Below are positions 17,127-40,908 of a stretch of DNA of 40,908 nucleotides, one piece after another (positions within the stretch are counted from its first letter, which is position 1; each line of letters opens with the position of its first letter). The notes under the pieces were generated by a model that ran no database searches, had not been told where the DNA came from, and saw only the letters and a list, made by a program, of their open reading frames with translations. The translations under genes and the position numbers were made by a program. Location: the IMG/VR virus record IMGVR_UViG_3300007520_000036, one strand, 5' to 3'. This stretch comes from a virus.

Positions 17127-17130
17127 GCTT

Positions 17131-17138
17131 TAACTTTG
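17131..17138 (+). promoter_or_regulatory. TAACTTTG -7 promoter motif 4 nt upstream of the terS ATG
   Basis: TAnnTTTG, with a TTTG at 17107..17110 (20-nt spacing, as expected for a Bacteroides-type -33 element). Confidence 0.5.
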
Positions 17139-17142
17139 AGCC

Positions 17143-17592: not shown

Positions 17593-18913
17593 AGCCTATC
17601 GGTCGGCACTGTCAGGCGAAAAGCAGTTTATTCTATTCGGCGGGGCTATTCGAGGCGGTAAAACCTATTGGCTACTGCTTACGTTTATATCGCTATGCAG
17701 CAAGTTCCCTAAATCGCGGTGGGTGATTATCCGCGAATCACTGCCTACGCTTAAGCGCACGACGTTAGTGACGTTTAAGGAAATAATTAACCAAGGCTTA
17801 GCGCCTCACATCGAATCGTTCAATCAGGATACTTTCACCGTGACTTTCACTAATAAGTCTGAGCTGATTTTTATGCCTGAAAGTTACGATCAAGATAAAG
17901 ACCTCAACAGGTTTCGCGGTTTGGAAATCAACGGCGGTGGCATAGATGAAATTAACGAATGCCACGAGCAGATGCTATACAAGCTTTTCGAGCGTTCCGG
18001 CACGTGGCTACACGCTCAGCCTGACGTCGAAGGCAATACCGCGCCTATTATCATTTTAGCGACGTGTAACCCCGCGCAAAATTGGATTAAAGACGTAGTT
18101 TACGACAAATGGAAAAGCGATACGCTACCAAAGACGTGGCAGTACATACCGTCTAAAATCACCGACAATCCACACATTCCGCTTGAATACATGGAATCGT
18201 TACGGGAAAACCTACCGCCTTACGAGTTCCAAAAGTTTGTCGAAGGTGACTGGGACGTGGCAGAAAAAGCGGTTAACCCGTTCTTTTTGGCTTACGAACC
18301 CGCCAAGCACGAAAGCAAAGCGGAACTATTTGACCCGCTTAAACCGATACTTATTAGCTTAGACTTTAACCTGCAACCTTTTTGCGGCATAGTTTGTCAG
18401 TACTTTATCGACGACAAAGGAATCCACCGCTTTAGGGTAGTCGATGAAATATCGGTTGCCGATGGCTCAATCCCTAAAATGATTGATGCTATCAAGCTAC
18501 GCTACGGAGCGCACCTTGCAAGCTGCTTCCTGACAGGCGACGCAATGGGCAACCGCGGCGACTTATCGCAACGTGACAACGCTAACTACTACGAGCAAAT
18601 AGCGCGCGGCTTAGGGCTTAAGGATAGGCAAATGGTTGTACCACGCGCTAATCCAACACACGAAAATAGCCGCGCTGAATGTAACTTTGTGCTTCAAAAC
18701 TTTCCAGACTTTAAAATTAGCCCTAATTGCAAAGGCGTGCGGCGCGATGTCAGGTCGGTTGAATGCGACGCAGCGGGGTCTATTATCAAGAAAAACAGAA
18801 AGATAATATCGCAACAGGCCGACATGGCTGACTGTTTACGCTATGCTATAAACACGTTCTTAGGCGAATGGTATGCCAAAGAGCTAAAAAGAATTGGATA
18901 TAACCGCAAATGA
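17567..18913 (+). CDS. terL: Terminase large subunit
   Basis: LFGGAIRGGKTYW (Walker A-like), GGGIDEINE (Walker B / catalytic Glu), ILATCNP. 448 aa with an Asp-rich nuclease half. Confidence 0.85.
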   Translation: MKLTAKQTKAYRSALSGEKQFILFGGAIRGGKTYWLLLTFISLCSKFPKSRWVIIRESLPTLKRTTLVTFKEIINQGLAPHIESFNQDTFTVTFTNKSELIFMPESYDQDKDLNRFRGLEINGGGIDEINECHEQMLYKLFERSGTWLHAQPDVEGNTAPIIILATCNPAQNWIKDVVYDKWKSDTLPKTWQYIPSKITDNPHIPLEYMESLRENLPPYEFQKFVEGDWDVAEKAVNPFFLAYEPAKHESKAELFDPLKPILISLDFNLQPFCGIVCQYFIDDKGIHRFRVVDEISVADGSIPKMIDAIKLRYGAHLASCFLTGDAMGNRGDLSQRDNANYYEQIARGLGLKDRQMVVPRANPTHENSRAECNFVLQNFPDFKISPNCKGVRRDVRSVECDAAGSIIKKNRKIISQQADMADCLRYAINTFLGEWYAKELKRIGYNRK

Positions 18914-18952: not shown

Positions 18953-19315
18953 ATGAGCTGCGAACCCTGCTTACTTATCGCTTCCTTCGACATTTGCTGC
19001 ACCGACCTAACAATCGGCACGGTAGCCTTAGCTGGAGAGTACCGCACAATTATCACCGACCTATCGACAGGGGCTAAATTCAGCTACGTGTCGACAGTAG
19101 CGGCTAATAACGACCTGCTGACAATACAGCCAAACGATATTGAGGTACGCGAATATTTCTTTACCACTAACCGAACCTACGCGCTTGAAACCTTCATACA
19201 GACAGCAAGCGACTGCAACACCAACACGCCCGCCAATATAACGCGCGGCGAAGACGTAGAAACGTGCTTTTCGTTCGAGTTCTTACGAATGGACAACATA
19301 ACCACCGCGCCATGA
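18953..19315 (+). CDS. Hypothetical virion-module protein (120 aa)
   Basis: ORF at the start of the tail module. No recognisable motif. Confidence 0.5.
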   Translation: MSCEPCLLIASFDICCTDLTIGTVALAGEYRTIITDLSTGAKFSYVSTVAANNDLLTIQPNDIEVREYFFTTNRTYALETFIQTASDCNTNTPANITRGEDVETCFSFEFLRMDNITTAP

Positions 19316-19644
19316 CCTTTCTAGAATTAGCCGTAATAACTAGCTTGTCGTGTGTAGCGATGTATGTGCTGTTTGAAAGCAATATGCTGCTATCGTTTTT
19401 TACCGACAGATACCGGATTAAAGACTTTACCCGCAACGTTATAAACGAATACGACGACAGTAAAACGAAGTGGTATCACAAGCCGCTATTCGCTTGTGTG
19501 GGCTGCATGGCTTCGTTTTGGGGCACATCTTTCTACGCGCTATACACGGTTGTGCTAGAGTTCCGATGCTTCGATAGCGCCGAAATGCTATGCACGTGCT
19601 TGATTTGCGTTCCTTTAAATTTCATCTTTAACAACCTTACATGA
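19312..19644 (+). CDS. Multi-pass membrane protein inside the tail module
   Basis: The ATG at 19312 makes an ATGA overlap with the previous stop. Hydrophobic helices: LELAVITSLSCVAMYVLF, LFACVGCMASFWGTSFYALYTVVL, LCTCLICVPLNFIF. Confidence 0.5.
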   Translation: MTFLELAVITSLSCVAMYVLFESNMLLSFFTDRYRIKDFTRNVINEYDDSKTKWYHKPLFACVGCMASFWGTSFYALYTVVLEFRCFDSAEMLCTCLICVPLNFIFNNLT

Positions 19645-24617: not shown

Positions 24618-26320
24618 GCGTAATTCTCACACCAAATCAATCAATCGTTTGCGCGCCTACGACCTTAAGCGACGACTTAATCAATTACGATTGGTTTGTA
24701 AACGCCGAGAATTGGCAGGACACGGGCAGCAACATACTAACAGTAGGTGCTTATGGTGGCGTGCAGATTTATGCGCTTGACGTAGGCGATGGATTTTTAC
24801 CCTACACGCTCTACTATGCGCAAACAATAGTAACGGATTGCGATTTCGTGCTTTACAACGTGCTGTTTGATTTCGTCAGCTACACAGGTACGATAACCGT
24901 CAGCAACGCTATTGCGTCAGCCGGAACGGGCGTAGTTATCACAGGCAGCGGGTGGTGGTCTTTTCTACTACCTAAAAACACGAAGCCGAATTTTGCTTAC
25001 CAAGGCTTAGCGGGTATTACGCGAATATCAAACCTTCAAGCCTACTGCATAACCGCCGCTCCGGATTGCGATTGCAGGCACGGGGATTACATTCAGCCGA
25101 TACTTGCCGAATGTGTTGTTCCGGATAGCGTCGCCGAAATGATGGCGGCAATACGCGCTGAATGGATAGCCGAAAGCACTACCTACGAATCACCGCTATG
25201 TGTTGCCGAGGTTCTTGAATCGCTAGCAGAAATAGGCACGGGGATATGTGACATGACAAGCGAGGGCGTTACGGTTCAATACCCCGCTATAATTGGCGCC
25301 GACGTGGTTTTAAACGGCAGCTTTGCAAGTGGTGCGAACTGGACACCGTCGGGCAGAATGTCAATAGGTAGCGGCTCGCTCAATTGTAACGCAACGGTAG
25401 GCGGTGCGGAATGCTTTCAAACGTGCTTGATTGTCGGCAACTACTACAAGATAACGCTGACGGTATCGGGGTCGACAGGCGGCGAGGTTAAAGTTCAGTT
25501 CGGTACTGTAAACACTATCGGCACGGTAAGCACTAACGCTACTGTCACGTTATACGGCAAGTGCATAACCGACGGCAAGCTGATATTTGAAGCAAGCGCA
25601 TCAGCGGCTTTCAACGGCTCGATTGACAACGTATCGGCACGACCTATCTCTATTTTTGAATTCACGGCTTTATTCGACTCAGGGCTATCGTTAGGATTTA
25701 CACAGGACTTCATTCAGGTTGAAGACGACATTGTGTTCCAACGCATGACGCTCAACCCTACCACCGACCCTGTAGCGATTACCAAAGACTGCTTTCGTGT
25801 CTTTGTCTATAATTCACACAATGAATCGGTAAGCACTGCTTACGAGCCTGAGTACTGCTTGACCGAGCCGTGGCAAATCACTACTAACGCGTGCGGCACG
25901 TTGCTGCTGACCGCGTTAATGGAAACATCGACTAGTTCGTGGGGATGGGGTTTTGCGGTTGAAAATAGCGGTATTTATTCTCCACGCATGAGAGTCTTTG
26001 CCGACCTTACCGAACCGAAATTCCCTACCGAATTAGACCAATTTGAAACAAGCTTTCACTACATATCACTGATATACGGTGAAAGGCGAAAAGTTAGCTT
26101 ACTAAAGATTAACAGGTCGCCGCTTTACGTTCATGAATTCATTAGCCTTGCTTGCCGCACCGATTTGTTTGGCATAAGGTTAGCCGATAACGAGGCAAAC
26201 TTCTACTTCACCAATACCGAGGAGTACACGCCGCAATGGATAAGAACGATGCGCATCGCTCCAGCTACAATCGAGGTGCAGGTCAAGCAACAGGACACCG
26301 TGAAAAACCTTTGTGATTAA
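24614..26320 (+). CDS. Tail tip / receptor-binding protein with a CBM-like jelly-roll segment
   Basis: ATGA-coupled. VVLNGSFASGANWTPSG...YYKITLTVSGSTGGEVKVQFG resembles the NG(G/S)FE..G...W starts of carbohydrate-binding modules. Confidence 0.45.
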   Translation: MSVILTPNQSIVCAPTTLSDDLINYDWFVNAENWQDTGSNILTVGAYGGVQIYALDVGDGFLPYTLYYAQTIVTDCDFVLYNVLFDFVSYTGTITVSNAIASAGTGVVITGSGWWSFLLPKNTKPNFAYQGLAGITRISNLQAYCITAAPDCDCRHGDYIQPILAECVVPDSVAEMMAAIRAEWIAESTTYESPLCVAEVLESLAEIGTGICDMTSEGVTVQYPAIIGADVVLNGSFASGANWTPSGRMSIGSGSLNCNATVGGAECFQTCLIVGNYYKITLTVSGSTGGEVKVQFGTVNTIGTVSTNATVTLYGKCITDGKLIFEASASAAFNGSIDNVSARPISIFEFTALFDSGLSLGFTQDFIQVEDDIVFQRMTLNPTTDPVAITKDCFRVFVYNSHNESVSTAYEPEYCLTEPWQITTNACGTLLLTALMETSTSSWGWGFAVENSGIYSPRMRVFADLTEPKFPTELDQFETSFHYISLIYGERRKVSLLKINRSPLYVHEFISLACRTDLFGIRLADNEANFYFTNTEEYTPQWIRTMRIAPATIEVQVKQQDTVKNLCD

Positions 26321-26326
26321 TTTACT

Positions 26327-26334
26327 TATATTTG
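26327..26334 (+). promoter_or_regulatory. TATATTTG -7 promoter motif
   Basis: TAnnTTTG in the 84-bp intergenic region before the ATG at 26405. Confidence 0.45.
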
Positions 26335-26404
26335 CCCTGTCGTGCGATGTGGCGTTCCGAGCCAATAAATCGGAGAAGTAAAAAATATCAAAAGTTAAAA
26401 AAAA

Positions 26405-26944
26405 ATGTCATATATCCAATATGGATGCGGCGACCTTCCTAACCATGAGTTAGTGCCGTGTGGCGTATATCCTAAAGGCGGCATTTCGGCGATTGGGATT
26501 CTGGAAACAGATCACACCATCACCGACTTTACAAACGCCGCGCAATATACCGCCGCGATAGCGAACAACTCGCTGAATGTTATTAAGAACATTCGGGGCA
26601 ATGTTCCCGACCCCTCCCCCGTTGAAGGCGACAACCCTGTAGGTTGCGGCCCTGATACGATTCTCAACGGCTTTAATTGGACAGCAAATTGGATGGATGC
26701 CAACGTAACGAGCGGCAACATTGATTTTTACAACCAATTGAACACCCGCACGACCTTTCTGATAATTTATCTTTGCGATGAAGACACGGTCATGGTTGTT
26801 GAGCGTGCCGTTAATTACATCGGTTTTAACACCGTACCGGCAAGCAACAAAGAGTTGCAGATGTTTAACGCCACCGCGCGCGCATCGTTAAGTGCGAACG
26901 GTTTACCGCTTAAATACGACGCTCCGGCGGGTATTTTCGAGTAA
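26405..26944 (+). CDS. Virion structural protein with its own promoter motif and terminator (candidate major tail tube protein)
   Basis: 179 aa, a monocistronic-looking unit between a promoter motif and a strong terminator. The function is a positional guess. Confidence 0.3.
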   Translation: MSYIQYGCGDLPNHELVPCGVYPKGGISAIGILETDHTITDFTNAAQYTAAIANNSLNVIKNIRGNVPDPSPVEGDNPVGCGPDTILNGFNWTANWMDANVTSGNIDFYNQLNTRTTFLIIYLCDEDTVMVVERAVNYIGFNTVPASNKELQMFNATARASLSANGLPLKYDAPAGIFE

Positions 26945-26961
26945 GATGTTAAGCTGTTAAT

Positions 26962-26993
26962 AAAAAGCCCTTGCGATTGTAAGGGCTTTTTTT
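26962..26993 (+). terminator. Rho-independent terminator
   Basis: 11-bp stem aaaaagccctt/aagggcttttt, 8-nt loop, T-run. Confidence 0.85.
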
Positions 26994-27011
26994 ATTTCAA
27001 AATGAATTGAC

Positions 27012-27019
27012 TAATTTTG
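27012..27019 (+). promoter_or_regulatory. TAATTTTG -7 promoter motif at the head of the glyco cassette
   Basis: TAnnTTTG lies 3 nt upstream of the ATG at 27023. Confidence 0.45.
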
Positions 27020-27022
27020 AAA

Positions 27023-27193
27023 ATGAACAAAAAGATAAGGTTTACCGGCGGCGTTCAGATATACTCAGCCGTTGTAGGCGAATTGGCTACCAAGGGCTAT
27101 TGGTTGCCACGCGTCGACCTTGCTGAATTCGAGGCAGGAGATATAAGCTTTGAAGTCAACCACAAACACAAAAAAATGATACGTATACGATGA
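27023..27193 (+). CDS. Small ORF (56 aa), absent from the track
   Basis: My translation is MNKKIRFTGGVQIYSAVVGELATKGYWLPRVDLAEFEAGDISFEVNHKHKKMIRIR. Confidence 0.4.
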   Translation: MNKKIRFTGGVQIYSAVVGELATKGYWLPRVDLAEFEAGDISFEVNHKHKKMIRIR

Positions 27194-27277
27194 TATGCTT
27201 CAATTACGACAGGCATAAACGCTTCATTACATACATGATAACCAAGGCTCAAAGCATACACTTTATAGCCCTATGAC

Positions 27278-28219
27278 ATGACGAAAAAAACAAGTGAAAC
27301 AGGCATATTGCTAATGGCTTTCGGTAAGCCGCAATACGCTCAAATGGCGTTCAATATGGCTTTGTCAATAAAAGCGCACGGCACGACGGCACGCATTCAG
27401 CTAGTGCATGACGACTCGGTAAAAGGACTTAGGCACGATCAGCTTTGGCCGTTTGATATACTCACGCCGATCAAGCACGACGACCTGTATAGCGGGGCTT
27501 CAATGAATCCGGGCAGGGCAAAAACACGGATGGACTTTTATACCGAGTTTGAAAATACGATATACTTAGATGTCGACGGTATATGCTTAAAACCGATACA
27601 GCCTTTGATTGACCACATGGACGCGCTTAGCGGCTATTACTACGTTCAATCGGCTAATTGGTACGAGCCGAGCAACGCCGTGCCTACACACAACTTGAAG
27701 CGTGACGGCTTAGCTTTCCCGCAAATGCAGTGGGCTTTGCCTGAAAAGATATGGCAAGTCCACGGACTGAAAGAAGATGCTGAGGTAACGGCTATCAATT
27801 CATCGTTCACCTATTTCAGAAAGAACGAATCGAAAGCATTCTTTGATAGCGTCCGCGACAACATCGACAACGGATTAAAGCCCGGCGAATACAGTTTGTT
27901 GTGGGGCGGCACGTACCCCGACGAACTAGCATTTAACATCGCGTGCGCTCAACACGAAGTAAACCCGTCGGCTATGCTCAATCCGATATGGTTTCAATTC
28001 GGCAAGCCGCTTACTAAGCCCGCCGAAATGACTGCTAACTACTATTTTTTGGGCTTGTACGGAGGCGCACACGTTACCCACAGTTCGGCGGGTGACTATT
28101 ACGACAGGCTTATGTTCGGGTATTGCCGCAATATGGGGCTAACACATCAGTTCAAATGGCACTTCCTTAGCAAGGCAAAGCACCAAGGCAAAAGCACTCA
28201 GTTAAAGCGGTTAAACTAA
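27278..28219 (+). CDS. GT-A fold nucleotide-sugar glycosyltransferase (GT8-like)
   Basis: N-terminal GILLMAFGKPQYAQMA, DxD motif YLDVDGICL, 313 aa, no TM helix. Confidence 0.5.
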   Translation: MTKKTSETGILLMAFGKPQYAQMAFNMALSIKAHGTTARIQLVHDDSVKGLRHDQLWPFDILTPIKHDDLYSGASMNPGRAKTRMDFYTEFENTIYLDVDGICLKPIQPLIDHMDALSGYYYVQSANWYEPSNAVPTHNLKRDGLAFPQMQWALPEKIWQVHGLKEDAEVTAINSSFTYFRKNESKAFFDSVRDNIDNGLKPGEYSLLWGGTYPDELAFNIACAQHEVNPSAMLNPIWFQFGKPLTKPAEMTANYYFLGLYGGAHVTHSSAGDYYDRLMFGYCRNMGLTHQFKWHFLSKAKHQGKSTQLKRLN

Positions 28220-28849
28220 ATGAAGGTATCAATTATCACAACCTGCAAGGGGCGGCTTGACCACCTTAAGCAGTGCTTACCGAGTTGGTTTAACCAATCC
28301 TTTGCAGATGTCGAGATTGTAATGGTGGATTACAACTGCCCTGAGCAAAGCGGCGACTACTGCGACTGCTTAGGCGAGGGTATTGTAGTTGTCCGCCCTG
28401 AGGGTATCGGTAAGTATTTTAACCTTAGCCATGCCCGTAATATCGGCGCGCTATCTGCAAGCGGTGATGTAATGTTCTTTATTGACGCTGACACGACGCT
28501 CGACAACGATTTTATTCAGCACCACGTCGATAACGTGCTTGTCGACGGTAGGTTCTTATCGGGGTGGTTCTACGGCGACGCAACAGGTAGCTGCATTGTA
28601 TGGGCGCGTGACTTTAAAACGGTGCGGGGCTTCAATGAAAACGTCGAAGGGTGGGGTTTTGACGACATAGACTTCTATAAGCGTTTAGAGGCTAATGGCA
28701 TTGAGCAGAAAGGCTTTGAACGTGGTATCGTCACTATTAAGCACGGCGACGAAGACAGGGTGAAGCATTACCACAGCAGTAATTTAAGGGCAACAGATAT
28801 GAACAACCAAAGAAAAACGAAGCAAAAATTTATAAGTTGTATATTATGA
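28220..28849 (+). CDS. Family 2 glycosyltransferase
   Basis: MKVSIITTCKGRLDHLKQCL, FFIDADTT (DxD), GFNENVEGWGFDDIDFYKRL (GT2 / Glyco_transf_7C-like). Confidence 0.8.
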   Translation: MKVSIITTCKGRLDHLKQCLPSWFNQSFADVEIVMVDYNCPEQSGDYCDCLGEGIVVVRPEGIGKYFNLSHARNIGALSASGDVMFFIDADTTLDNDFIQHHVDNVLVDGRFLSGWFYGDATGSCIVWARDFKTVRGFNENVEGWGFDDIDFYKRLEANGIEQKGFERGIVTIKHGDEDRVKHYHSSNLRATDMNNQRKTKQKFISCIL

Positions 28850-29391
28850 AAGTGACTTGGAAAGACTTAAAGGGGTGGTTCGACTTCCCATCAATTTACG
28901 ACCGCGCAATTGAAACCGCGCCACGCGGGGCGACGCTTGTCGAGGTCGGCGTGGCTTACGGGCGGTCAATCAATTACATGGCGACGCAGTCTAAGCTTGC
29001 CGATAAGGCGTTGAAGATTGTTGGCGTGGACTTGTTCATGGGTAGCGTTAAGGAAAAGCCCGGCACGTACGCAAAGGATATGTTTGACCAATTTGTTCAC
29101 GGCGTTCACGCGTGCGGTAATAACGACGTAATAAGAACGCTTTTAGGCGATAGTGCCGAGTCGGCAAAGAACTTCAAAGACAAAAGCTGCCACCTCGTAT
29201 TTATCGACGCGTCACACACATACGACGAGGTAAAGCGGGACTTGATCGCGTGGCTGCCCAAAGTATCGCGTGGCGGTATATTCGCCGGTCACGACATAGA
29301 CGCCGAGGGTGTGCGCAAAGCCGTCAATGAGGTATTAGGCAAGGAAGGCGTTGATTGGGTTATCGAGGGCAGAAGTTGGGTGATGTCATGA
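28846..29391 (+). CDS. Class I SAM-dependent methyltransferase (Methyltransf_24-like)
   Basis: LVEVGVAYGRSINYMA, VFIDASHTYDEVKRDL, GGIFAGHD. The ATG at 28846 makes an ATGA overlap with the GT2 stop. Confidence 0.7.
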   Translation: MKVTWKDLKGWFDFPSIYDRAIETAPRGATLVEVGVAYGRSINYMATQSKLADKALKIVGVDLFMGSVKEKPGTYAKDMFDQFVHGVHACGNNDVIRTLLGDSAESAKNFKDKSCHLVFIDASHTYDEVKRDLIAWLPKVSRGGIFAGHDIDAEGVRKAVNEVLGKEGVDWVIEGRSWVMS

Positions 29392-29492
29392 AGCGCAACA
29401 AGATTTATTATAACGACCCTGAATATTGGGAAATAGCCGTGGCAATTATTTTATTTGGCGCAATAGCGTTTTTGTTCATCGCTTTTGCTTAG
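29388..29492 (+). CDS. Small single-TM ORF (34 aa), absent from the track
   Basis: My translation is MKRNKIYYNDPEYWEIAVAIILFGAIAFLFIAFA. ATGA-coupled to the methyltransferase. Confidence 0.4.
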   Translation: MKRNKIYYNDPEYWEIAVAIILFGAIAFLFIAFA

Positions 29493-29499
29493 TTTTGAA
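29483..29499 (+). repeat. 17-nt direct repeat TTTTGCTTAGTTTTGAA, copy 1 (contains TAGTTTTG)
   Basis: Identical to 29571..29587. Embeds a TAnnTTTG motif at 29490..29497. Confidence 0.9.
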
Positions 29500-29531
29500 T
29501 CGGTTTAGTTATTGGCTTTGAGGTCAAGGTG

Positions 29532-29562
29532 AAAGCCGCTCAATTTTGGGCGGCTTTTTTTT
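29532..29562 (+). terminator. Rho-independent terminator splitting the glyco cassette
   Basis: 8-bp stem aaagccgc/gcggcttt, 10-nt loop, T8 run. Confidence 0.8.
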
Positions 29563-29570
29563 ATAACTTG

Positions 29571-29587
29571 TTTTGCTTAGTTTTGAA
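29571..29587 (+). repeat. 17-nt direct repeat TTTTGCTTAGTTTTGAA, copy 2 (contains TAGTTTTG)
   Basis: Identical to 29483..29499. Embeds TAnnTTTG at 29578..29585, 21 nt before the ATG at 29607. Confidence 0.9.
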
Positions 29588-29606
29588 AAACTTACGACAA
29601 AACCGA

Positions 29607-29777
29607 ATGACATACTCCATACAAATCGATGGGCAAACAGTAAGCAAGGCAGCAGATGAAAGCACGCGCGACATCATTTTTACCGCTATAAAAAAAGCCC
29701 ACCCATACAAGCTTGTTACATGGTCTGTTATAAAAGCCGGAACCACCAAATGTTGCGGAGCAATAGAAAAGGCATGA
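29607..29777 (+). CDS. Small protein (56 aa)
   Basis: Internal Met of track ORF 29529..29777. The longer form would start inside the terminator hairpin. Confidence 0.45.
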   Translation: MTYSIQIDGQTVSKAADESTRDIIFTAIKKAHPYKLVTWSVIKAGTTKCCGAIEKA

Positions 29778-30625
29778 AGCGCAAAAAGGTTCGAGTCGTG
29801 ACAAATTGGTGTAGTTCGTTTGACATACACGACAGGATAATTGACCAATTTTGCGCCGATAAAACAACCCTCGGCTTTGAATTTACCGCCTCGGATGATT
29901 ACGACTACCTAGTCGCATTCAACGATATGAGGGGCTTTACGCCGTTAGTTCCTAAATCCAATATCTTAGGCTTCATTCAAGAGCCACCAAACCATGCGCA
30001 TTTTTACGACACGAAATTAGCGGACAGCTGCGAATTGGTTTACACCTGCGCCGCGCCACATCAATATCCTGTTTATAGCGATAACATGAAAGGCTTTCCG
30101 TGCGGTATGTTCTTTCACATGGGCGGTGATATACTCGATTATTTCGGTAAGCCCGAAAAAACTAAAGACGTGTCAATGATTACCAGCGGCATACGTGGCG
30201 GCTTCTACGAACACCGCCGCAACCTTGCCTCTTATCTTCACCGTAGCGGCACGGCTGATGTTTTCGGCAGGGGGCTATCGACAGGTAAAGGCACGCTGCA
30301 AAACAAAGCAGACGGGCTAATGCCCTACAAGTTTAGCGTGTGCATGGAGAACGGAATATACGAAGGATACATTTCAGATAAGATTATAGACGCTGTTTTG
30401 TGCGACGCGATACCCATCTATGTAGGTGCGCCTGATGTTGCTGCATTCATTCCTTTTGCCATTGTACTCGATAACTTTACCAATCCAAAGCGAGCCGCTG
30501 CGGACATAAAAGAAATCATTCAGTCGGTAAATTACGACGCTATCTACCCAAAGATGCAAGCGTTTAAAAAGCTATATTTAAGCAAGCATTCAATACTAAC
30601 TAAGATTAACGAGTTTGTAAAATGA
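29774..30625 (+). CDS. GT10-like (alpha-1,3/4-fucosyltransferase family) glycosyltransferase
   Basis: YKFSVCMENGIYEGYISDKIIDAVLCDAIPIY matches the GT10 FxLxFENS...YxTEK motif. The ATG at 29774 is ATGA-coupled to the upstream ORF. Confidence 0.65.
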   Translation: MKRKKVRVVTNWCSSFDIHDRIIDQFCADKTTLGFEFTASDDYDYLVAFNDMRGFTPLVPKSNILGFIQEPPNHAHFYDTKLADSCELVYTCAAPHQYPVYSDNMKGFPCGMFFHMGGDILDYFGKPEKTKDVSMITSGIRGGFYEHRRNLASYLHRSGTADVFGRGLSTGKGTLQNKADGLMPYKFSVCMENGIYEGYISDKIIDAVLCDAIPIYVGAPDVAAFIPFAIVLDNFTNPKRAAADIKEIIQSVNYDAIYPKMQAFKKLYLSKHSILTKINEFVK

Positions 30626-31233
30626 AGACAATACACGCAACGATAGCCAAACTTATTGCCACAGGCGGTAAGGTGATATTTGAGATAGGCGCACATAAAG
30701 GCGAGGACACAGCGCACCTTGCATCGATTAAAGGCAGCGTCGTTCATGCCTTTGAATGCGACCCGCGCAACATCTTAACGCGATTACCTGCTAACGTGCG
30801 CATCAATTACAGCGCGGTATCTAACCACAACGGCACTCAGGACTTTTGGCTATCCGAAAAGCCAGGCGCGCAATGGACTTGCAGCAGCAGCTTGTTGCTA
30901 CCAAAGAAGCACTTAGAGGAACACCCGCAAATCAAGTTCGACCGCCGCGTAGAGGTAAGATGCACAACGCTCGACACGTACTGCGAATCGAATAGAATCG
31001 AAGCAATAGACTTTATTTGGATGGACGTACAAGGCGCGGAACACCTCGTATTTGAAGGCGGCAATTCTATACTGAAAAACACGCATTTCATATTCACCGA
31101 ATACGCCGACAACGAGCAGTTTAGAACTCAAAAACCATTGGCGGATTTATTACTAATTTTGGGTAAGAATTGGCGCGTTGTCGAGAAGTGGGATTATGAC
31201 GTGCTGCTAATCAATGACAACTTTAAAATGTAA
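30622..31233 (+). CDS. FkbM-family SAM-dependent methyltransferase
   Basis: IFEIGAHKGEDT, AFECDPRN, NHNGTQDFW, CTTLDTYC, IDFIWMDVQGAEHLVFEGG. ATGA-coupled to the GT10 gene. Confidence 0.8.
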   Translation: MKTIHATIAKLIATGGKVIFEIGAHKGEDTAHLASIKGSVVHAFECDPRNILTRLPANVRINYSAVSNHNGTQDFWLSEKPGAQWTCSSSLLLPKKHLEEHPQIKFDRRVEVRCTTLDTYCESNRIEAIDFIWMDVQGAEHLVFEGGNSILKNTHFIFTEYADNEQFRTQKPLADLLLILGKNWRVVEKWDYDVLLINDNFKM

Positions 31234-31272
31234 AGATATGTGTGGCTGCAAAAAAAAACCTAGAGGCAAAAG

Positions 31273-33051
31273 ATGATTAACGACGAGCAAAACGTATCAC
31301 CCTTAGAGGGCGCGCTAAATCATGTCGTTAAAGTGCTTAAAGGCACGAAGGGAGATGCTACGCCCGACTTTTACGACACCTATGCAGATTCTGTCAAGGT
31401 GGCCAGTAAGCTCCGGCCACACGCTGAATATGACTACTTCCCCGACGAACTTTTTGCGGAAAAAGCACCGAACCAAACCGCTGCTGAATTCACGTATCAA
31501 AAAGGGATATATCAGCCCGTAACCGTGCCTTACTTCCACAAAGCGGCTAACACCGCTTATCGGATATGGAACGAGCAGAACTACGATATTATTTGGGGTG
31601 AAGGCAACGACGAGCAGCGCGACTACTTTTATAAGCAGTTTCCTTTCTGGGGCAACTTAGAAAGCTATTATAAACAGGTCGTCACGCCTCGCGACCTAAC
31701 AGACCCGAACGCGGTTATTGTTCACGTGCCTATAAACTTAGCGTTCACTGAGGAGGGTATATTCGATGACAGCAAGCGCGTTGAGGTAATAGCCGATTTA
31801 TACCCGTGTGAGCGTGTATGGCTATTTGAAGACGATACCGAATGTATTATCGCGTCTTATGAACACTCGATGCTTGACGGTGATAAAACGGACGGCCTCG
31901 TATTGTGGTACTTTGATAAAAACGAAATCTACAAGCTTACGCAATACGGCAAAAAACAGGAATACACCTTTAACATCGAGCTGTATTATGCCCATAACCG
32001 CGACAAGATGCCATGTCGTCGCCTTGGTGGCATTCCAATTCAAAGGCAAGATAACTTTTACTTTCAATCGTTCTTTAGCCCTGTTGTACCCGCTTTGAAT
32101 CAAGCGCTATGTGACAGCTCGACGCTATCAATATCTAAGTATAGCCACGCCTTTTTGCAAAAGTGGGAATACGTCGACGACTGCGAGGTGTGCGACGGCT
32201 CAGGCAATGAAAGCTATCACATGGAAGGCTTCAACGAGCTAAAGACCCGTATCTGCTCAGGTTGCCACGGCGCGGGGGCTAAGCGTATGTTTTCCGCTTC
32301 GTCGGTTTATCAAGTTCAATCTCCCACGAAATTCAATACCGAAAAGGAGAAAATGGCCATACCACCCGCGGGCTTTATTGACATAGACCATGGCATCCTT
32401 GACTTTTTGCAAACACAGGTCGAAAAGAATATACAAAGCGCCTTTGAGCTGTTGTCAATAGACGTAATGAACAGCGACAAAATCAGCGGGCGTGAAACGG
32501 CAACAGGCAAGGCAATAGACCGCGAGGAACTGTATTCGTTTTTACTCAGGTTTAGCGAAACGGTATTTAACTTATTTGAGTTTAGCGTTAACACAATCGG
32601 AGAAATGCGATTCGGCAAAGAATGGCAAGCGCCTTCAATCCGCTATCCGCAAAACTTTGAGATGCGAACCGATACGGAACTAACCGAGGAGCTAAAAGCC
32701 GCTCCCGACTTCGCTAAACCGATGCTTGCCATGCAGTACGCAGGCGCGCGCTTCGCCACGCAAGAAAGCAAAGCGGACTTGCTTAAGATTTCGTTTTCGT
32801 TAGACTACTTTTTCGGCAAAGAGGTCAAAGATGTGATAGCCCTCGTTTCGTCAGGCATTGCGCCGAAATGGAAGGCGACGCTTCACAACGAAATGATGTC
32901 TATAATCCGCGAAGCTATTGCCGGTAACGCTACGTTCATGGACTTAGACGCTATCGAGCGTCAAGCGATTGTCGATGCGATAGCTCAGGCAAGAACGCCC
33001 GACAACGCGAGGTTAACGCCGGAGCAAATCCTTTCGGAAATTATAATATGA
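31273..33051 (+). CDS. Portal protein (putative) with an embedded CxxCxGxG zinc-finger pair
   Basis: 592 aa, immediately upstream of and ATGA-coupled to the Mu F/SPP1 gp7-like gene. The call is positional only. Confidence 0.5.
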   Translation: MINDEQNVSPLEGALNHVVKVLKGTKGDATPDFYDTYADSVKVASKLRPHAEYDYFPDELFAEKAPNQTAAEFTYQKGIYQPVTVPYFHKAANTAYRIWNEQNYDIIWGEGNDEQRDYFYKQFPFWGNLESYYKQVVTPRDLTDPNAVIVHVPINLAFTEEGIFDDSKRVEVIADLYPCERVWLFEDDTECIIASYEHSMLDGDKTDGLVLWYFDKNEIYKLTQYGKKQEYTFNIELYYAHNRDKMPCRRLGGIPIQRQDNFYFQSFFSPVVPALNQALCDSSTLSISKYSHAFLQKWEYVDDCEVCDGSGNESYHMEGFNELKTRICSGCHGAGAKRMFSASSVYQVQSPTKFNTEKEKMAIPPAGFIDIDHGILDFLQTQVEKNIQSAFELLSIDVMNSDKISGRETATGKAIDREELYSFLLRFSETVFNLFEFSVNTIGEMRFGKEWQAPSIRYPQNFEMRTDTELTEELKAAPDFAKPMLAMQYAGARFATQESKADLLKISFSLDYFFGKEVKDVIALVSSGIAPKWKATLHNEMMSIIREAIAGNATFMDLDAIERQAIVDAIAQARTPDNARLTPEQILSEIII

Positions 33052-35170: not shown

Positions 35171-36208
35171 ATGTCATACGCATTTAACTCATTTATCAAC
35201 TGCCCCGATATTCAGGGCAGACTTGAAGACGGCTATTTCCGTGGAGACCCCACGATGTTTCAAGGCCATATCAACGTGCTTCGCGCCGTAACCGCTCCTT
35301 TCAATGAAAGCGGCGTTATGCAGCGTCAAATCGACACGCGCAACGGCAAGTATCGCCAGGTCGAGGTTGTTTATCAGCCCCGCCTTTCAGTTACAGACGT
35401 TAGCACAAGTGCCGCACTGACCTGCGCCGGTGGTGCTACATACGGCGAAACATCGACCGTGTACAACATCGACCCTGCTGTCGGTGCTTCCTTCCCTTGG
35501 TCTGTAAGTTTAACCGATTTAGCCGCGCGTTGCGAGGCTGACGAAAACTACATCGCTCGCATGGTTGAAAAAGGTATGTCGGCAATCAAACGCTCGATGA
35601 ATCAAGAAGCTGTTGCTTTCCTTGATGCCAATTTTGGACCGCTCGGCTACGGCGACACGACCTTCACGACTAAGACAAAGCTTACCAACGGCGCTTTTGT
35701 TGACGATTACCTATCTGACATTATGTATCAGTACGAGCTTGCCGAAGGGTGGAATCGTCCTGTTGTTGTTGGCGGCGAATTGTCACGCAAGTACATGACC
35801 GCTTTACGCGCTCATTGTTGCGCTACGGTAAACGTTGACCTGCAAGCATTGGCAGGTAGCGACGCTGAAGCTTACTTCTTCTTCGAGCCGACCGCCGACA
35901 CCGTATTCGGTGCAGGTCAGTTCGCATTCTGGGCGCCGGGTGCTGTTCAGTTGATTCGTTACAACGAGTTCACGAACGTACAAGGGCCGCGCGGTATTGA
36001 CGACGGTGCGATTAAAATCGGCACTATCAGCGACCCGCAGACCGGCTTAGACTTTGACTACTACGCTCAATTTGATTGCGGCGTGTGGAATTTTCAGTTG
36101 AAGCTTGCCTACAAGTTCATCAGTATGCCTGAGGATATGTTCCTCACAAACGACAACTTGTCGGGCGTGAATTACATCTTCAACGGTGTAGTGACCAATC
36201 CGTCATAA
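35171..36208 (+). CDS. Major capsid protein (putative)
   Basis: 345 aa, located after the scaffold gene and followed by a terminator. No motif-level proof. Confidence 0.6.
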   Translation: MSYAFNSFINCPDIQGRLEDGYFRGDPTMFQGHINVLRAVTAPFNESGVMQRQIDTRNGKYRQVEVVYQPRLSVTDVSTSAALTCAGGATYGETSTVYNIDPAVGASFPWSVSLTDLAARCEADENYIARMVEKGMSAIKRSMNQEAVAFLDANFGPLGYGDTTFTTKTKLTNGAFVDDYLSDIMYQYELAEGWNRPVVVGGELSRKYMTALRAHCCATVNVDLQALAGSDAEAYFFFEPTADTVFGAGQFAFWAPGAVQLIRYNEFTNVQGPRGIDDGAIKIGTISDPQTGLDFDYYAQFDCGVWNFQLKLAYKFISMPEDMFLTNDNLSGVNYIFNGVVTNPS

Positions 36209-36233
36209 TCGGGTAGCTTCTGCTCGATGTGTG

Positions 36234-36268
36234 AGGGGGTGCAGCAATGTACCCCTTTCTTTTTTTTT
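36234..36268 (+). terminator. Rho-independent terminator after the capsid gene
   Basis: Stem agggggt/acccctt (one G.U pair), 10-nt loop, T-rich run tttcttttttttt. Confidence 0.65.
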
Positions 36269-36269
36269 G

Positions 36270-36277
36270 TACTTTTG
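36270..36277 (+). promoter_or_regulatory. TACTTTTG -7 promoter motif
   Basis: TAnnTTTG lies 16 nt upstream of the ATG at 36294. Confidence 0.4.
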
Positions 36278-36293
36278 GGTAAATAAAAACACA

Positions 36294-37298
36294 ATGGCAA
36301 ACTGTTACGATAACGTCATAGGCATTAAAGGCTATTGCAGCGATGTAACGCCTTCAAGCGGGTTGTGGCTTAACGACCTCACAGGACTTGATTTGATAAG
36401 CTTAGACCACGGCGCAAACGCTGAGCAACAAACGGCAATTACATTGGTGCTGAGTAAAATTGAATCCGCTTTTAATCTCATGAAAGCCGAATCGCAGAAC
36501 ATCATGTCGTCACGGTGGCATTTCCAAACATCTGCAAGCGATAGCGTTATAGGCTTTTTTCCCGAATCTGTATCACCGATTGCCGCCGCTCCTGTTTTTC
36601 GAGGCATAGCGGCACGGTTCGGACAGGTCGATTACTTTAGCTTAGGGCTGACGGCTATAACGTTTCTTTTGCCCGAGACCGTAGCCAATATCCCCGTGTT
36701 TGTCGTCGACCTCAGAACAGGCGTTACTGTCGACACCATAGCTTGCAGCAGCGTTGCCAACGTGCCGACGCGCACCAACGTGGCAAAGAAGTACATAACA
36801 AGCGGGCAGATGCTTAACTACGCGTTTTTGTTCGATACCACGACTATTCAAACCTACAACACCACGCTTTACCCTACGGCTTCATGTGGCTCGTGTAAAA
36901 ACGGATATTACGAAAACGGTAGCATCTTAGAGCGGGCAATAAAAATACCTACTGCATCGGCTAAGGTCGAGGCGAATATATCGAGCGACGGCTTTGCGGG
37001 CGGTATGTCGGTACAATATCAGCTTGCTTGTAGCTTCGACTCGTTGCTATGCGCACATATGCCACAGCTTGGATATGCGTTGCTGTATAAAACGGGTTCG
37101 CTTCTAATGCAAGAGCTTAAGTATAGCAAGCGGCTCAACGGTATAATATTCACTAACCGCGAAAGCTTTTCTGAGCTAGAAGTATACTATCAGCAGAAGT
37201 ACGAGGAATATTTAAACACGTATTGGAACAGGGCAAATTTAAGTTCCGGCTGTATTATCTGCAACAAATCTATTAAACAAGTCGTCCGCATACCATGA
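36294..37298 (+). CDS. Virion-module protein (334 aa), function unknown
   Basis: I chose the ATG at 36294 (MANCYDN...). The track start at 36231 lies in the terminator. Confidence 0.5.
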   Translation: MANCYDNVIGIKGYCSDVTPSSGLWLNDLTGLDLISLDHGANAEQQTAITLVLSKIESAFNLMKAESQNIMSSRWHFQTSASDSVIGFFPESVSPIAAAPVFRGIAARFGQVDYFSLGLTAITFLLPETVANIPVFVVDLRTGVTVDTIACSSVANVPTRTNVAKKYITSGQMLNYAFLFDTTTIQTYNTTLYPTASCGSCKNGYYENGSILERAIKIPTASAKVEANISSDGFAGGMSVQYQLACSFDSLLCAHMPQLGYALLYKTGSLLMQELKYSKRLNGIIFTNRESFSELEVYYQQKYEEYLNTYWNRANLSSGCIICNKSIKQVVRIP

Positions 37299-37840
37299 CC
37301 TTAGCGCAACAAATCGAAAGCTTAGAACGTAAAAAGCAGATGTTAATATCGGGGCGGGACAAAGCACTTCGCGTCGCCGCTCTTGATACGACGGCGGCTG
37401 TATCGATGCGAATCTTTACCTCAGGCGGTGCGCAACGTGGGCGAATTGGTAGCTACTCGACGCGGCCTATGTTTGCAACGCAGTCACAGTTCGTGAAAAA
37501 AGCAGCGTTTAAAAAAGACGGGTTTATACGCTTTCCCGGCAGCAGCGGCGCAACTCCGATCATGAATCTCCCCGGCGGATATAAGCAGCTCAGGGCTATT
37601 CAAGGCAGACCTACCAACACGGTCAACCTAGACTATTCCGGCGCAACACGTAAAGACTTCGAGAATAGCGTGCGCAAATGGGGCAACGGATATGCGGCTA
37701 TTGTAAAGCGCGATTTAAGCGCCGAAATAATCGAAAAGAACGAGCTTCATTTTAAGAAAAAGATTTTCGCTTTGACTGACAAGGAATTGATACACTTTGA
37801 AAAAACGCTTACTAAAGAAGTAATGAAATGGATTTCTTAG
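37295..37840 (+). CDS. Virion-module protein (head-tail joining?), function unknown
   Basis: ATGA-coupled. 181 aa. Confidence 0.4.
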   Translation: MTLAQQIESLERKKQMLISGRDKALRVAALDTTAAVSMRIFTSGGAQRGRIGSYSTRPMFATQSQFVKKAAFKKDGFIRFPGSSGATPIMNLPGGYKQLRAIQGRPTNTVNLDYSGATRKDFENSVRKWGNGYAAIVKRDLSAEIIEKNELHFKKKIFALTDKELIHFEKTLTKEVMKWIS

Positions 37841-39345
37841 CCTTAACCACCGCAATATTCGACCGCATTGCGCCGTATCAATTAGTACGACATACAGGCT
37901 TTGCCGAGGTGATAACCGACAAGGATAAAAAGTACCCCGCCGTGTTTTGCACCAACGGTGAATTTAAGCACGTCGACGGTGGTTACGATTGGAACGAGGG
38001 TATAGCTTACGTGCGCGTGAATGGTAGGCAGTCACAAAGCGACGCGCCTGAATCGGCTTACTTCATGGGCTGTCAGGACTTACAGAATATCAGCATACCG
38101 CTTCGCCTTGTGCTAATAGCCCGCCGCGATAAGTGGCTACCTTTCGACGCGGCGCAAACTATTGCCTCTGCTATCGGCGGCAACTACCGCAACTTAGCCT
38201 TAGAAATCGGCGCGGTGTATGTTAGCGTGAATTCAACAGATACAGAAAGCAATTACACTACGGTTTTAGAAGATGAATTTGAGGGCGTAGATATTCGCTT
38301 CGACACCTCGCTTATGGCTATTTACGTAGACATTGTTGTCGAGTTACAAGGCGACGCGCAATGTTTAGCAACACCTGCTTGCATTGCTGTCGTTCCCGAA
38401 CCGTTATGGCTTGCGGGGGTAAGTAATGGAAGGCTTTACCGCTCTATTAATGGCGGTACGACATGGGCGGAAACACAGCCCGCTGGAAATTTTAACGCAA
38501 CGTGGGCAGGCTCTCACGTAGCTACCCTAGGAACTTTTGCTTTTGTGACAACCAACACAAAACTATACAGGTCTAACGACGGCGGGGCTACATGGGTGGA
38601 ATTGACAAGCCCGAACGCAAACACTAACTTAGGAGTAATAAGCGGCGCAAAGGAAAACGGCAAAGTACTTGCAATAGGCACGCCTATAAACACGGCGTTA
38701 CCAAACATATTTTTATCCGATACTAACGGGCTAAACCTTGCATCCTTTACCATCGACGGTATAACAACGGCACGGGAGTACACAAATTCAAAAATGAGCA
38801 GCAACGGGCAAAAGATTGTTGTTGCAGGCGATAATAGGGACTTTAGGGCAGCAGGTGTTCGGTTTACAACAAGGCTTACAACAGACAACGGCGCAACGTG
38901 GTCAACACCTTTTAATGTAAGCAACTCGTTTTATGTAGTTTATGCAGTTAATGATTTGTTGGATAAAATTTTTATTGCTGAATTCAATTCGGTCTTAACG
39001 TTTAATTCACTAAAAAGAACGATTGACGGCGGCGCGACATGGGACACGGCGGCAGGCGTGACAAGTGGCGGGTTCTTTGACATGAGCGGCGACGGCACTA
39101 CGTTGTATTGGGCTACGTCTTCAATACTTCGCAAATCGACTAACAACGGCACGTCGTTTACCACACTCACAATACCAAGCAGGGCAGGCAATATTCAGGA
39201 AGTCCGCACCAATTTGAACGGGCTAAAATTGTTAGTGCTGACATCTCAACGCGCCTACCTAAGCTTAGACGGCGGCACGACTTGGGCGCAAACACAACCG
39301 AACGGAAACAGTAACTTCAATTGGGACTTAGGATTTATTCAATAA
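37828..39345 (+). CDS. Virion protein with a C-terminal BNR/Asp-box beta-propeller
   Basis: Six Asp-box-like motifs: SINGGTTW, SNDGGATW, TDNGATW, IDGGATW, STNNGTSF, SLDGGTTW. Confidence 0.7.
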   Translation: MDFLALTTAIFDRIAPYQLVRHTGFAEVITDKDKKYPAVFCTNGEFKHVDGGYDWNEGIAYVRVNGRQSQSDAPESAYFMGCQDLQNISIPLRLVLIARRDKWLPFDAAQTIASAIGGNYRNLALEIGAVYVSVNSTDTESNYTTVLEDEFEGVDIRFDTSLMAIYVDIVVELQGDAQCLATPACIAVVPEPLWLAGVSNGRLYRSINGGTTWAETQPAGNFNATWAGSHVATLGTFAFVTTNTKLYRSNDGGATWVELTSPNANTNLGVISGAKENGKVLAIGTPINTALPNIFLSDTNGLNLASFTIDGITTAREYTNSKMSSNGQKIVVAGDNRDFRAAGVRFTTRLTTDNGATWSTPFNVSNSFYVVYAVNDLLDKIFIAEFNSVLTFNSLKRTIDGGATWDTAAGVTSGGFFDMSGDGTTLYWATSSILRKSTNNGTSFTTLTIPSRAGNIQEVRTNLNGLKLLVLTSQRAYLSLDGGTTWAQTQPNGNSNFNWDLGFIQ

Positions 39346-40835: not shown

Positions 40836-40908
40836 TCATGATTGACCCACAAGATGCACTGTATTTTATCTACTTAGGTAGCGAAACCGACCCTATCGAA
40901 GGTTACGA
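40786..40908. repeat. Second copy of the 123-bp terminal repeat
   Basis: Identical to 1..123. Confidence 0.95.

Follow-up and report, generated by a model that had tools for sequence, protein, structure and literature searches.

Glycosylation of virion proteins has been described for the mycobacteriophages Che8, Corndog and Myrna, in which the capsid and tail-tube subunits are reported to be glycosylated, and the cluster O phages, to which Corndog belongs, encode three glycosyltransferases and an O-methyltransferase (PMC11600133, PMC12619734, PMC12363180, citing Freeman et al. 2023). Chlorovirus PBCV-1 carries methylated glycans on its capsid, made by soluble viral enzymes that include a sugar 2-O-methyltransferase domain, and the machinery that glycosylates its Vp54 protein comprises A064R, A075L, A071R and A111/114R (PMC7019647). 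Single glycosyltransferase genes within the structural module have also been reported for phages of Bacteroidota, namely the 'Gratiaviridae', where modification of the capsule was suggested (PMC8008677), and the genus of Cellulophaga phage phi18:1 (gp41), where modification of the lipopolysaccharide (LPS) was one of two options put forward (PMC11946311). In the present work we studied a cassette of three glycosyltransferase and two methyltransferase genes located on the plus strand at 27278-31233, between the tail-tube and portal genes, of the IMG/VR virus record IMGVR_UViG_3300007520_000036; the whole stretch of 40,908 nucleotides that was analyzed is referred to as the window. To our knowledge, phage-encoded glycosylation of the virion has been shown so far only in a few mycobacteriophages. 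The virion glycans of mycobacteriophages are discussed mainly as a shield against antibodies, and apart from these phages, capsid glycans that a virus makes itself are known from giant algal viruses. The large lineage of environmental phages studied here has a toolkit of this kind as a fixed component of its virion gene block.

Positions 1-123 of the window are identical to positions 40786-40908 (123 bases), and therefore it is considered a complete genome, circularly closed or terminally redundant, with a unique length of approximately 40,785 bp. Relatives of the first cassette gene (g1) were found in at least 192 IMG/VR contigs, 80 of which were fetched, and further metagenome contigs were added. 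More than 100 related uncultured contigs were compared in all, and the statements on gene order refer to the loci with enough flanking sequence. The variable slots of 79 loci yielded 234 proteins, which were clustered, and 50,697 phage records served as the comparison set for cultured phages. The open reading frames (ORFs) of the genome with a length of at least 100 amino acids (aa), except for four of 102-113 aa, were scanned against PHROGs or Pfam.

Enzymes of the Cassette

The first gene, g1 (27278-28219, plus strand like the other four), encodes a 313-aa GT8-like glycosyltransferase of the GT-A fold, which is presumably a retaining one. It gave no match to Pfam, NCBIfam or the annotated PHROGs, and its assignment comes from structure prediction. 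The AlphaFold2 (AF2) model, computed with 25 homologues, has a predicted local distance difference test (pLDDT) score of 90.6 and presents the GT-A fold. Foldseek searches against the PDB returned WbbM, glycogenin-1 and glycogenin-2, UGGT, LARGE1, LgtC and the GT8 protein 3tzt (E-values from 8e-8 to 2e-6, template modelling (TM) scores of about 0.45-0.6), the best of which are retaining enzymes of the GT8/GT24 type, while a sequence profile search against the PDB matched glycogenin at an E-value of 1e-4 over the N-terminal 100 residues only. Among the nearest solved relatives are enzymes that act on proteins, i.e., glycogenin, UGGT, LARGE1 and the Skp1 α-galactosyltransferase. Both aspartates of the DxD motif (D98 and D100 in YLDVDG) are unchanged in the 25 homologues, which share 27-64% identity, and a PDEL motif is likewise invariant among them. 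Toward the C-terminus, K301 and H302 are invariant (H302 in a 14-sequence subset) within the motif KH(A/Q)GK, the pLDDT being low past residue 303; GT8 enzymes have a C-terminal His/Lys motif, HxxGxxKPW. Two distant homologues of g1 presented weak matches to PF11051 (Mannosyl_trans3). The description that suits g1 best is that of a family of its own, related to GT8 by fold, for which no curated model was found.

The second gene, g2 (28220-28849), encodes a GT2 glycosyltransferase (PF00535, 46.1 bits with a cut-off of 23.3), the C-terminal region of which belongs to the β4GalT-like Glyco_transf_7C family (PF02709, 39 bits with a cut-off of 23). It carries the D-x-D signature FFIDADTT, and its PDB matches include GT2 enzymes and β4GalT7. 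The third gene, g3 (28846-29391), encodes an S-adenosylmethionine (SAM)-dependent O-methyltransferase of the Methyltransf_24/CmcI-like type, matching PF13578 with 70 bits (cut-off 26.3) and, more weakly, PF04989 (RMNT_CmcI) with 25.8 bits (cut-off 23.2). The fourth gene, g4 (29774-30625), encodes a GT10 glycosyltransferase similar to α1,3/4-fucosyltransferases (PF00852, 40.3 bits with a cut-off of 23.9). Concerning solved structures, it matched the Helicobacter pylori α1,3-fucosyltransferase (2nzw, 6.5e-9; 5zoi, 1e-8) and also plant FucTA and human FUT9. The family match covers the C-terminal, donor-binding half only, and the N-terminal 130-150 residues are without a family match. In the 50,697 phage records, g4 matched only genes of T4-like cyanophages that are unannotated or labelled 'putative transferase'. 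Finally, g5 (30622-31233) encodes a SAM methyltransferase of the FkbM family (PF05050, 75.7 bits with a cut-off of 22.7; TIGR01444, 65.3 bits with a cut-off of 37.7). Both methyltransferases, g3 and g5, would act on sugar hydroxyls.

The initial annotation, made from the sequence without database searches, had named these five enzyme types, and all five calls were correct, those of g2-g5 by Pfam, with NCBIfam agreeing for g5, and that of g1 by the AF2 fold and the invariant DxD. Support from hidden Markov models was obtained above the curated cut-offs for g2-g5 and is lacking for g1 in both Pfam and NCBIfam. A Kyte-Doolittle scan revealed no transmembrane anchor in any of the five enzymes, g4 having one internal hydrophobic stretch only, which bears out the earlier statement that they are free of transmembrane helices.

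Conservation of g1 and Its Genomic Position

Directly upstream of the cassette lies the gene of p179 (26405-26944, plus strand), a 179-aa protein with a tail-tube fold. Its AF2 model has a pLDDT of 83, and nearly all of its Foldseek matches in the PDB are tail-tube proteins (monocin MttP, Sf11, R4C, T1, HFTV1, SPP1). The conserved downstream boundary of the slot is the portal protein gene (31273-33051, plus strand; phrog_7376 at 3.7e-10). The order tail tube, g1, variable segment (0-5 kb) and portal was found in all of the approximately 90 loci ascertained through g1 that have enough flank, and it is kept where the identity of the portal to that of this genome falls to 21-28%. When loci were fetched through the tail-tube gene, g1 adjoined it in 27 of the 27 loci with at least 1.1 kb downstream, many of these contigs overlapping with the g1-fetched set. 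In distant clades the gap between the tail-tube gene and g1 is 8-45 nt long and holds no terminator, and in locus L095 the stop and start codons overlap, which implies that g1 is co-transcribed there with a major structural gene. The terminator and promoter motif that occupy this gap in the clade of the studied genome would fit a high expression of the structural protein and a low expression of the enzymes.

The divergence of g1 proceeds at about the rate of the portal and tail-tube genes. Accessory 'moron' genes are usually sporadic. Judged from gene order and divergence across these contigs, g1 is a vertically inherited core gene, which is physically tied to the tail-tube gene and probably tied to it in transcription as well. 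A recent horizontal 'moron' origin was rejected, given that g1 is a core gene and that the cassette has no GC anomaly (0.468 vs. 0.473 for the structural region).

An exhaustive profile search with a threshold of E ≤1e-30 gave 561 representatives of the g1 family, each standing for a cluster at 50% identity. Among the best 150 representatives, 31 are fusion proteins of 490-966 aa, in which Pfam detected GT25, GT32/Caps_synth and GH130-like domains, most of the extra domains being unannotated; named examples are P0201 (g1 with GT25 and GT32), P0142 and P0229. No fusion of g1 to a structural protein was found by BLAST against the genome and the slot proteins or by PDB searches with two fusions.

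Concerning cultured phages, neither the region 26000-33000 (megablast) nor g1 and the putative capsid protein p345 (tblastn) matched any of the 50,697 phage records, and the best portal matches, in Polaribacter and Pseudanabaena phages, reach only about 25% identity. A search of 185,579 reference genomes with a g1 alignment led to a single, distant relative, on a contig binned with a metagenome-assembled genome (MAG) of Taibaiella (Chitinophagaceae). The host is probably a member of the Bacteroidota, because the -7 promoter motif of that group is concentrated in the intergenic DNA of the phage (see below); the Taibaiella MAG contig and the Polaribacter portal match of about 25% are weaker hints. 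In the Taibaiella sp. MAG contig (locus L093; JACDGL010000019.1, 9992-18396), g1 stands directly before the portal gene, and a separate minus-strand cluster with FkbM-like and glycosyltransferase-like genes is located at 14320-18396, after the p290 homologue. The glycan genes of this contig occupy two sites of the head module.

Variable Genes of the Slot

Clustering of the 234 slot proteins revealed 21 architectures among the 79 slots, and all annotatable partners of g1 are sugar-related enzymes. The partner transferases include several GT2 clusters, GT10, GT-D, GT77-like and KfiA/heparosan-synthase-like GT45 enzymes, and the other partners are three FkbM clusters, class-I methyltransferases, a DegT aminotransferase and a hexapeptide acetyltransferase; no multi-transmembrane protein is present among the 234. 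The GT10 cluster occurs in 41 of the 79 cassettes and g2 in most cassettes of its own clade, and the full set of GT2, Methyltransf_24, GT10 and FkbM enzymes is common to this genome and locus L004 only. Minimal slots consist of g1 alone (L124, L125 and L093), g1 with an O-methyltransferase of the g3 type or g1 with a KfiA-like enzyme. Specifically, the g3-family methyltransferase is the only partner of g1 in 21 distant loci.

Phage pairs with 99-100% identity in the portal, 96-99% in g1 and 96-99% in the tail tube were found to differ in their distal enzymes. The swapped segments are clean and 1.3-2.4 kb long, with approximately 97% nucleotide identity on either side, and their breakpoints lie at the end of the GT10 gene or within the GT2 gene and about 150 nt ahead of the portal gene. 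Loci L026 and L021 also differ in their cassettes, with tail genes that are about 96% identical. This exchange of the distal enzymes as modules between near-identical phages suggests diversifying selection on the glycan in its fine structure, similarly to an O-antigen locus.

The slots of some relatives (L021, L022 and L040) contain a DegT/DnrJ aminotransferase-like ORF (possibly split) together with a hexapeptide acetyltransferase. As these are genes for N-acetylated amino sugars, not every cassette uses host nucleotide sugars only. The proposal of the initial annotation that host nucleotide sugars are used agrees with the genome studied, in which no nucleotide-sugar gene was found, and does not extend in full to those relatives.

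Proposed Function and Alternative Explanations

The enzyme families, the lack of transmembrane helices and the genomic position support the earlier view of a soluble, cytoplasmic multi-enzyme glycan pathway that is co-located with virion genes, and its placement between tail and head genes was right. Nearly all ORFs of at least 100 aa having been scanned (see above), no flippase, polymerase, nucleotide-sugar gene or integrase was detected by PHROGs and Pfam, as had been stated before. Classical lysogenic seroconversion, which had been said to fit poorly, was rejected: integrase, export, polymerization and lysogeny genes were not found in these scans, the slot proteins of the 79 loci include no multi-transmembrane protein such as would be expected of a module with a GtrA flippase, GtrB and a polytopic serotype-specific transferase or an O-acetyltransferase, and the cassette is located between the tail-tube and portal genes, whereas in such prophages it would lie next to the integrase/att site.

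The explanation that we favor, tentatively and with slightly less than even confidence, is that virion proteins are glycosylated late and in the cytoplasm, the glycan being short and methylated. The cassette would be expressed together with the late virion genes, a timing suggested by its position, and would draw on host nucleotide sugars and SAM. As the presumed initiating transferase, g1 would put the first sugar on the acceptor, after which g2 would extend the chain and g4, probably with GDP-fucose, would extend or branch it, and g3 and g5 would finally O-methylate the sugars. The product would be a short glycan of about three sugars and two methyl groups, probably fucosylated. Its acceptor would be the tail-tube protein encoded just upstream, p179 being the candidate, and/or the capsid protein, and progeny particles would exit the cell with a glycan coat. 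In this scheme we infer the reaction order, the donor sugars, the late timing and the acceptor. A virion target is favored because g1 is a core gene that always adjoins, and in places overlaps, a major structural gene, because none of the 79 cassettes has membrane partners and no lysogeny module was found in the genome, and because there are precedents in mycobacteriophages and chloroviruses.

The comparative evidence for a virion target is circumstantial, and several points weigh against it. O-antigen and capsule loci typically combine GT2, GT10 and FkbM enzymes. Among LPS glycosyltransferases, too, many are soluble or peripheral, so the absence of transmembrane helices does not discriminate, and the fold searches with g1 also return the LPS enzymes LgtC and WbbM. 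The lineage has no cultured member in the 50,697 phage records, and its virion glycosylation is a prediction from genes; in the same records, tblastn with g1, g2 and g4 revealed no sequence similarity to the mycobacteriophage enzymes. The late timing is likewise read from gene position only. Concerning the acceptor, the tail-tube assignment of p179 has moderate scores (E of about 3e-4, TM scores of 0.35-0.47), neither a glycosylation-site motif nor a shared or Ser/Thr-rich C-terminal acceptor motif is evident in p179 or p345, and the conserved C-terminus of p179 (APAGIF) holds no conserved Ser or Thr. Additionally, a glycan coat would have to bring a selective benefit in an aquatic setting, where there are no antibodies.

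Remodeling of the host envelope is, in our opinion, less likely, and it is the main alternative. From the cytoplasmic side of the inner membrane, the soluble enzymes would modify lipid-linked intermediates of the host, belonging to the O-antigen, the capsule or the general O-glycan of Bacteroidota, by adding methylated or fucosylated sugars that the flippase and ligase of the host would export, and this would block superinfection by other phages or the re-adsorption of progeny to infected cells and debris. GT8-like, GT2, GT10, FkbM, DegT, hexapeptide acetyltransferase and KfiA-like enzymes are indeed the standard toolkit of bacterial surface-polysaccharide loci, and O-antigen and capsule loci likewise have hypervariable cassettes enclosed by conserved flanks, a variability that host glycan diversity could drive. 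However, a priming phosphoglycosyltransferase, flippase, polymerase, ligase or Gtr-type membrane protein was found in none of the 79 cassettes, and the one 34-aa hydrophobic ORF coupled to g3, which could speak for a membrane partner, is not conserved. Since no integrase or lysogeny module was found, there would be no long-lived lysogen to protect, and the late expression implied by the position would leave little time for surface turnover before lysis. Furthermore, g1 stays fixed by the tail-tube gene across portal identities of 21-28%, where hosts and their glycans should differ, and the change of cassette between L026 and L021 would be unexpected if the cassette had to match the glycan of the host strain. 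Modification of the host surface has nevertheless been raised by the authors who described structural-module glycosyltransferases in other Bacteroidota phages (PMC8008677, PMC11946311), which counts for an envelope target and against a virion one. If the envelope were the target, the phage would be an unusual lytic one, with a core, late-expressed surface-remodeling locus.

An improbable alternative is another cytoplasmic acceptor, either a host protein (e.g., a defence or translation factor that would be inactivated, as by bacterial GT-A toxins) or a small molecule, the product being a methylated oligosaccharide that is linked to it or free. Cytoplasmic protein glycosyltransferases share the retaining GT-A/GT8-like fold, the enzymes are soluble, and the loci in which g1 is alone in the slot (L124, L125, L093) would fit a single-step modification; toxin-like effectors, however, add one sugar and would have no need for GT2 and GT10 enzymes, two methyltransferases and 21 enzyme sets, and a late core gene placed between tail-tube and portal genes is unlike the usual anti-defence gene, which is early and sporadic.

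Hypermodification of the DNA, in which sugars would be put onto 5-hydroxymethyl-pyrimidines and decorated by the methyltransferases for evasion of restriction and CRISPR, as in T4 or the MT/5mYOX/GT clusters of Pyle et al., is highly improbable. Glycosylation of DNA is indeed known for GT-A enzymes of phages, among them GT8-like ones for secondary sugars, and some of the clusters are near structural genes (bioRxiv 10.1101/2023.12.21.572611); the genome also has a C5-cytosine DNA methyltransferase (8772-9851) along with two other DNA methyltransferases. However, neither a ThyS-like hydroxymethylase (PF00303-like) nor a TET/JBP (5mYOX) dioxygenase was detected in the scanned ORFs of at least 100 aa (six of which, of 113-193 aa, are without annotation and could in principle encode a very divergent dioxygenase), the C5-methyltransferase lies 17 kb off in the replication module when intact pathways are usually clustered, the cassette is linked in every relative to tail-tube and portal genes and not to DNA metabolism, and JGT, TarP and the T4 β-glucosyltransferase (β-GT) are not among the top Foldseek matches of g1.

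Returning to glycosylation of the virion, its extension to the whole lineage is possible and is held with more doubt: a large, widespread and uncultured lineage of aquatic siphophages may coat its virions, on the tail tube and/or the capsid, with short methylated glycans, the locus acting as a phage 'O-antigen' locus with a conserved GT8-like primer, swapped distal enzymes and co-circulating 'glycotypes'. Virion glycosylation would then be a general, diversifying phage trait beyond the actinobacteriophages, not explicable by antibodies. If the virion is the target, natural phage particles would bear variable glycan coats under strong diversifying selection, with consequences for adsorption, decoy avoidance, grazing, particle stability and recognition by host defences, and a new axis of phage 'serotype' diversity would be added. 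Either way, the cassettes amount to a compact library, recombined in nature, of soluble glycosyltransferases and sugar methyltransferases, in which the anchor enzyme is defined and one candidate acceptor is obvious.

Junctions and Regulatory Signals

The contiguous block with ATGA/TAAATG junctions reported by the initial annotation is present in part. The junction of g1 and g2 is TAAATG and those of g2/g3 and g4/g5 are ATGA overlaps, but g3 and g4 are separated by a gap of 382 nt (29392-29773) with a terminator and a promoter motif. The start of g3 is most likely the ATG at 28846, which overlaps as ATGA with the stop of g2, and not the TTG at 28837. Similarly, g4 most likely starts at the ATG at 29774 and not at 29720.

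Ahead of the cassette, a terminator-like hairpin with a 13-bp stem and a T-run is located at 26962-26991 (plus strand), after the tail-tube gene, and is followed at 27012-27019 (plus strand) by TAATTTTG, a -7 promoter motif of the Bacteroidota type upstream of g1; both had been noticed before and both are real. A 56-aa ORF between this motif and g1 (27023-27193, plus strand) is doubtful and had no tblastn match in relatives. In the clade of this genome (L001-L059), all distinct gaps between the tail-tube gene and g1 contain a hairpin with a T-run and then a TAnnTTTG motif, the sequences of the hairpins varying.

The gap between g3 and g4 holds, all on the plus strand, a 34-aa hydrophobic ORF that is ATGA-coupled to g3 (29388-29492), a strong internal terminator-like hairpin with a T-run (29531-29558), a TAGTTTTG promoter motif upstream of g4 (29578-29585) and a 56-aa ORF that is ATGA-coupled to g4 (29607-29777). 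Both ORFs are uncertain, and none of the three small ORFs of the cassette gaps is conserved in any relative. The exact 17-mer TTTTGCTTAGTTTTGAA occurs twice, at 29483-29499 and 29571-29587, on either side of the internal terminator, and each copy contains one TAGTTTTG motif, the promoter motif upstream of g4 being that of the second copy. With an internal terminator and a promoter motif in this gap, the cassette therefore consists of two units, g1-g3 and g4-g5.

Genome-wide, TAnnTTTG is not enriched, with 45 occurrences observed vs. 41 expected. On the plus strand, 10 of the 22 occurrences are intergenic (intergenic DNA being 11% of the sequence), compared with 1.06 in shuffled sequences of matched composition, none of 1000 shuffles reaching 10, which supports the Bacteroidota-type promoter reading given earlier. 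The ten sites, at 6199, 9893, 17131, 18915, 20382, 26327, 27012, 29490, 29578 and 40629, are found 12-284 nt before nine gene starts, with one more past the last gene, and by their distribution they look like the promoter set of the phage. The full -33/-7 pattern (TTG-N19-TAnnTTTG) is not enriched, the intergenic enrichment being confined to the -7 motif.

Surrounding Genes

The order of the structural genes between 17143 and 40618 is non-canonical, with the tail-tube gene placed after the distal tail genes and ahead of the portal gene, and it is the same lineage-wide. It begins with the small (TerS) and large (TerL) terminase subunits, three small ORFs, the tape-measure protein and two large tail proteins, and continues with p179, the cassette and the portal; after the portal come p290, the coiled-coil scaffold-like p269, p345, p355, p181, p505 and the tail protein p419. 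The proteins p345 and p355 (35171-37298) are tandem proteins of about 350 aa that are kept across the lineage and have no Pfam, PHROG or NCBIfam match. The former (35171-36208) also has no match to PDB sequences or cultured phages, and its label as putative capsid protein is by position only. Protein p505 (37828-39345) presents a β-propeller with BNR/Asp-box and Sortilin-Vps10-type repeats and may serve on the virion as a receptor-binding protein of a glycan-binding or sialidase-like kind. Two overlapping ORFs (18953-19315 and 19264-19644) were observed between TerL and the tape-measure gene, the second with a hydrophobic helix at about residues 16-38; they could represent either tail chaperones produced by frameshifting or a membrane protein.

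Other annotated genes include an endolysin and replication genes. The three DNA methyltransferases are located at 3522-4157 (minus strand), 8772-9851 and 10940-13162, and among them are the C5-cytosine methylase (PF00145, 8772-9851) and a 740-aa helicase-methyltransferase fusion. A 153-aa protein with the C-terminal helix-turn-helix of DnaA (PF08299, 9.8e-15) is encoded at 16055-16516, between the replication genes and the terminase. The whole window contains neither a tRNA nor any Rfam family.

Comparison with Known Systems

With the mycobacteriophages, as reported for them, this phage has in common that several soluble glycosyltransferases and an O-methyltransferase are encoded by a tailed phage without export machinery. 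Their glycans are reported to be attached to capsid and tail-tube subunits, and here the cassette directly follows a gene with a tail-tube fold in the virion gene block. In contrast to them, there is no detectable sequence similarity, the host probably belongs to the Bacteroidota and not to the Actinomycetota, a GT8-like anchor without a Pfam match and a GT10 enzyme are present, and the slot is fixed, its first gene being conserved and the distal ones hypervariable.

Chlorovirus PBCV-1 resembles the present system in its cytoplasmic glycosyltransferases, which are free of signal peptides, in its sugar O-methyltransferase and in the short glycans with fucose and methylated sugars on its virion proteins. 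Multi-domain fusions of glycosyltransferases, with or without a methyltransferase, are another common feature, represented in the g1 family by proteins such as P0201. It differs in being a eukaryotic giant virus with N-linked glycans and scattered genes, and at the sequence level there is no relationship beyond the GT-A fold.

Concerning the bacterial O-antigen and capsule loci and the GT8 enzymes of LPS synthesis (LgtC, WaaJ/WaaO, WbbM), the enzyme families are the same, and so are the conserved flanks and anchor and the cassette-like replacement of distal transferases and modifying enzymes. Unlike those loci, the cassette has no priming transferase, Wzx/Wzy, ABC transporter or ligase and is part of a lytic-type phage genome of about 40.8 kb. 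The clusters for sugar hypermodification of DNA (bioRxiv 10.1101/2023.12.21.572611) and phage T4 share with it phage GT-A enzymes, some of them GT8-like, that act serially and are occasionally near structural genes, but here no source of 5-hydroxymethylcytosine or 5-hydroxymethyluracil (5hmC/5hmU) and no linkage to DNA metabolism were found.

The 'Gratiaviridae' and the genus of phi18:1 are alike in their Bacteroidota hosts and in a glycosyltransferase that is placed among late structural genes and conserved in the phage group. They are unlike it in having single glycosyltransferase genes (accompanied by a kinase and an ATPase in the Gratiaviridae) and no multi-enzyme cassette with modular turnover. 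In the 50,697 phage records, g1 had no tblastn match, a negative that includes no direct comparison with gp41 or the Gratiaviridae enzyme. The earlier statement that no such system was known to be characterized in a Bacteroidota-type phage can be kept for a multi-enzyme, swapped slot, which was not found in the literature searches, and needs adjusting for single glycosyltransferase genes, which had been noted before, although without functional work. In literature searches, we found no description of a lineage-wide fixed slot, a Pfam-less GT8-like anchor family, a tie to the tail-tube gene or recent modular swapping. Since each of the five enzymes has a known fold or family, and glycan pathways encoded by viruses had been described before, the system is not categorically new.

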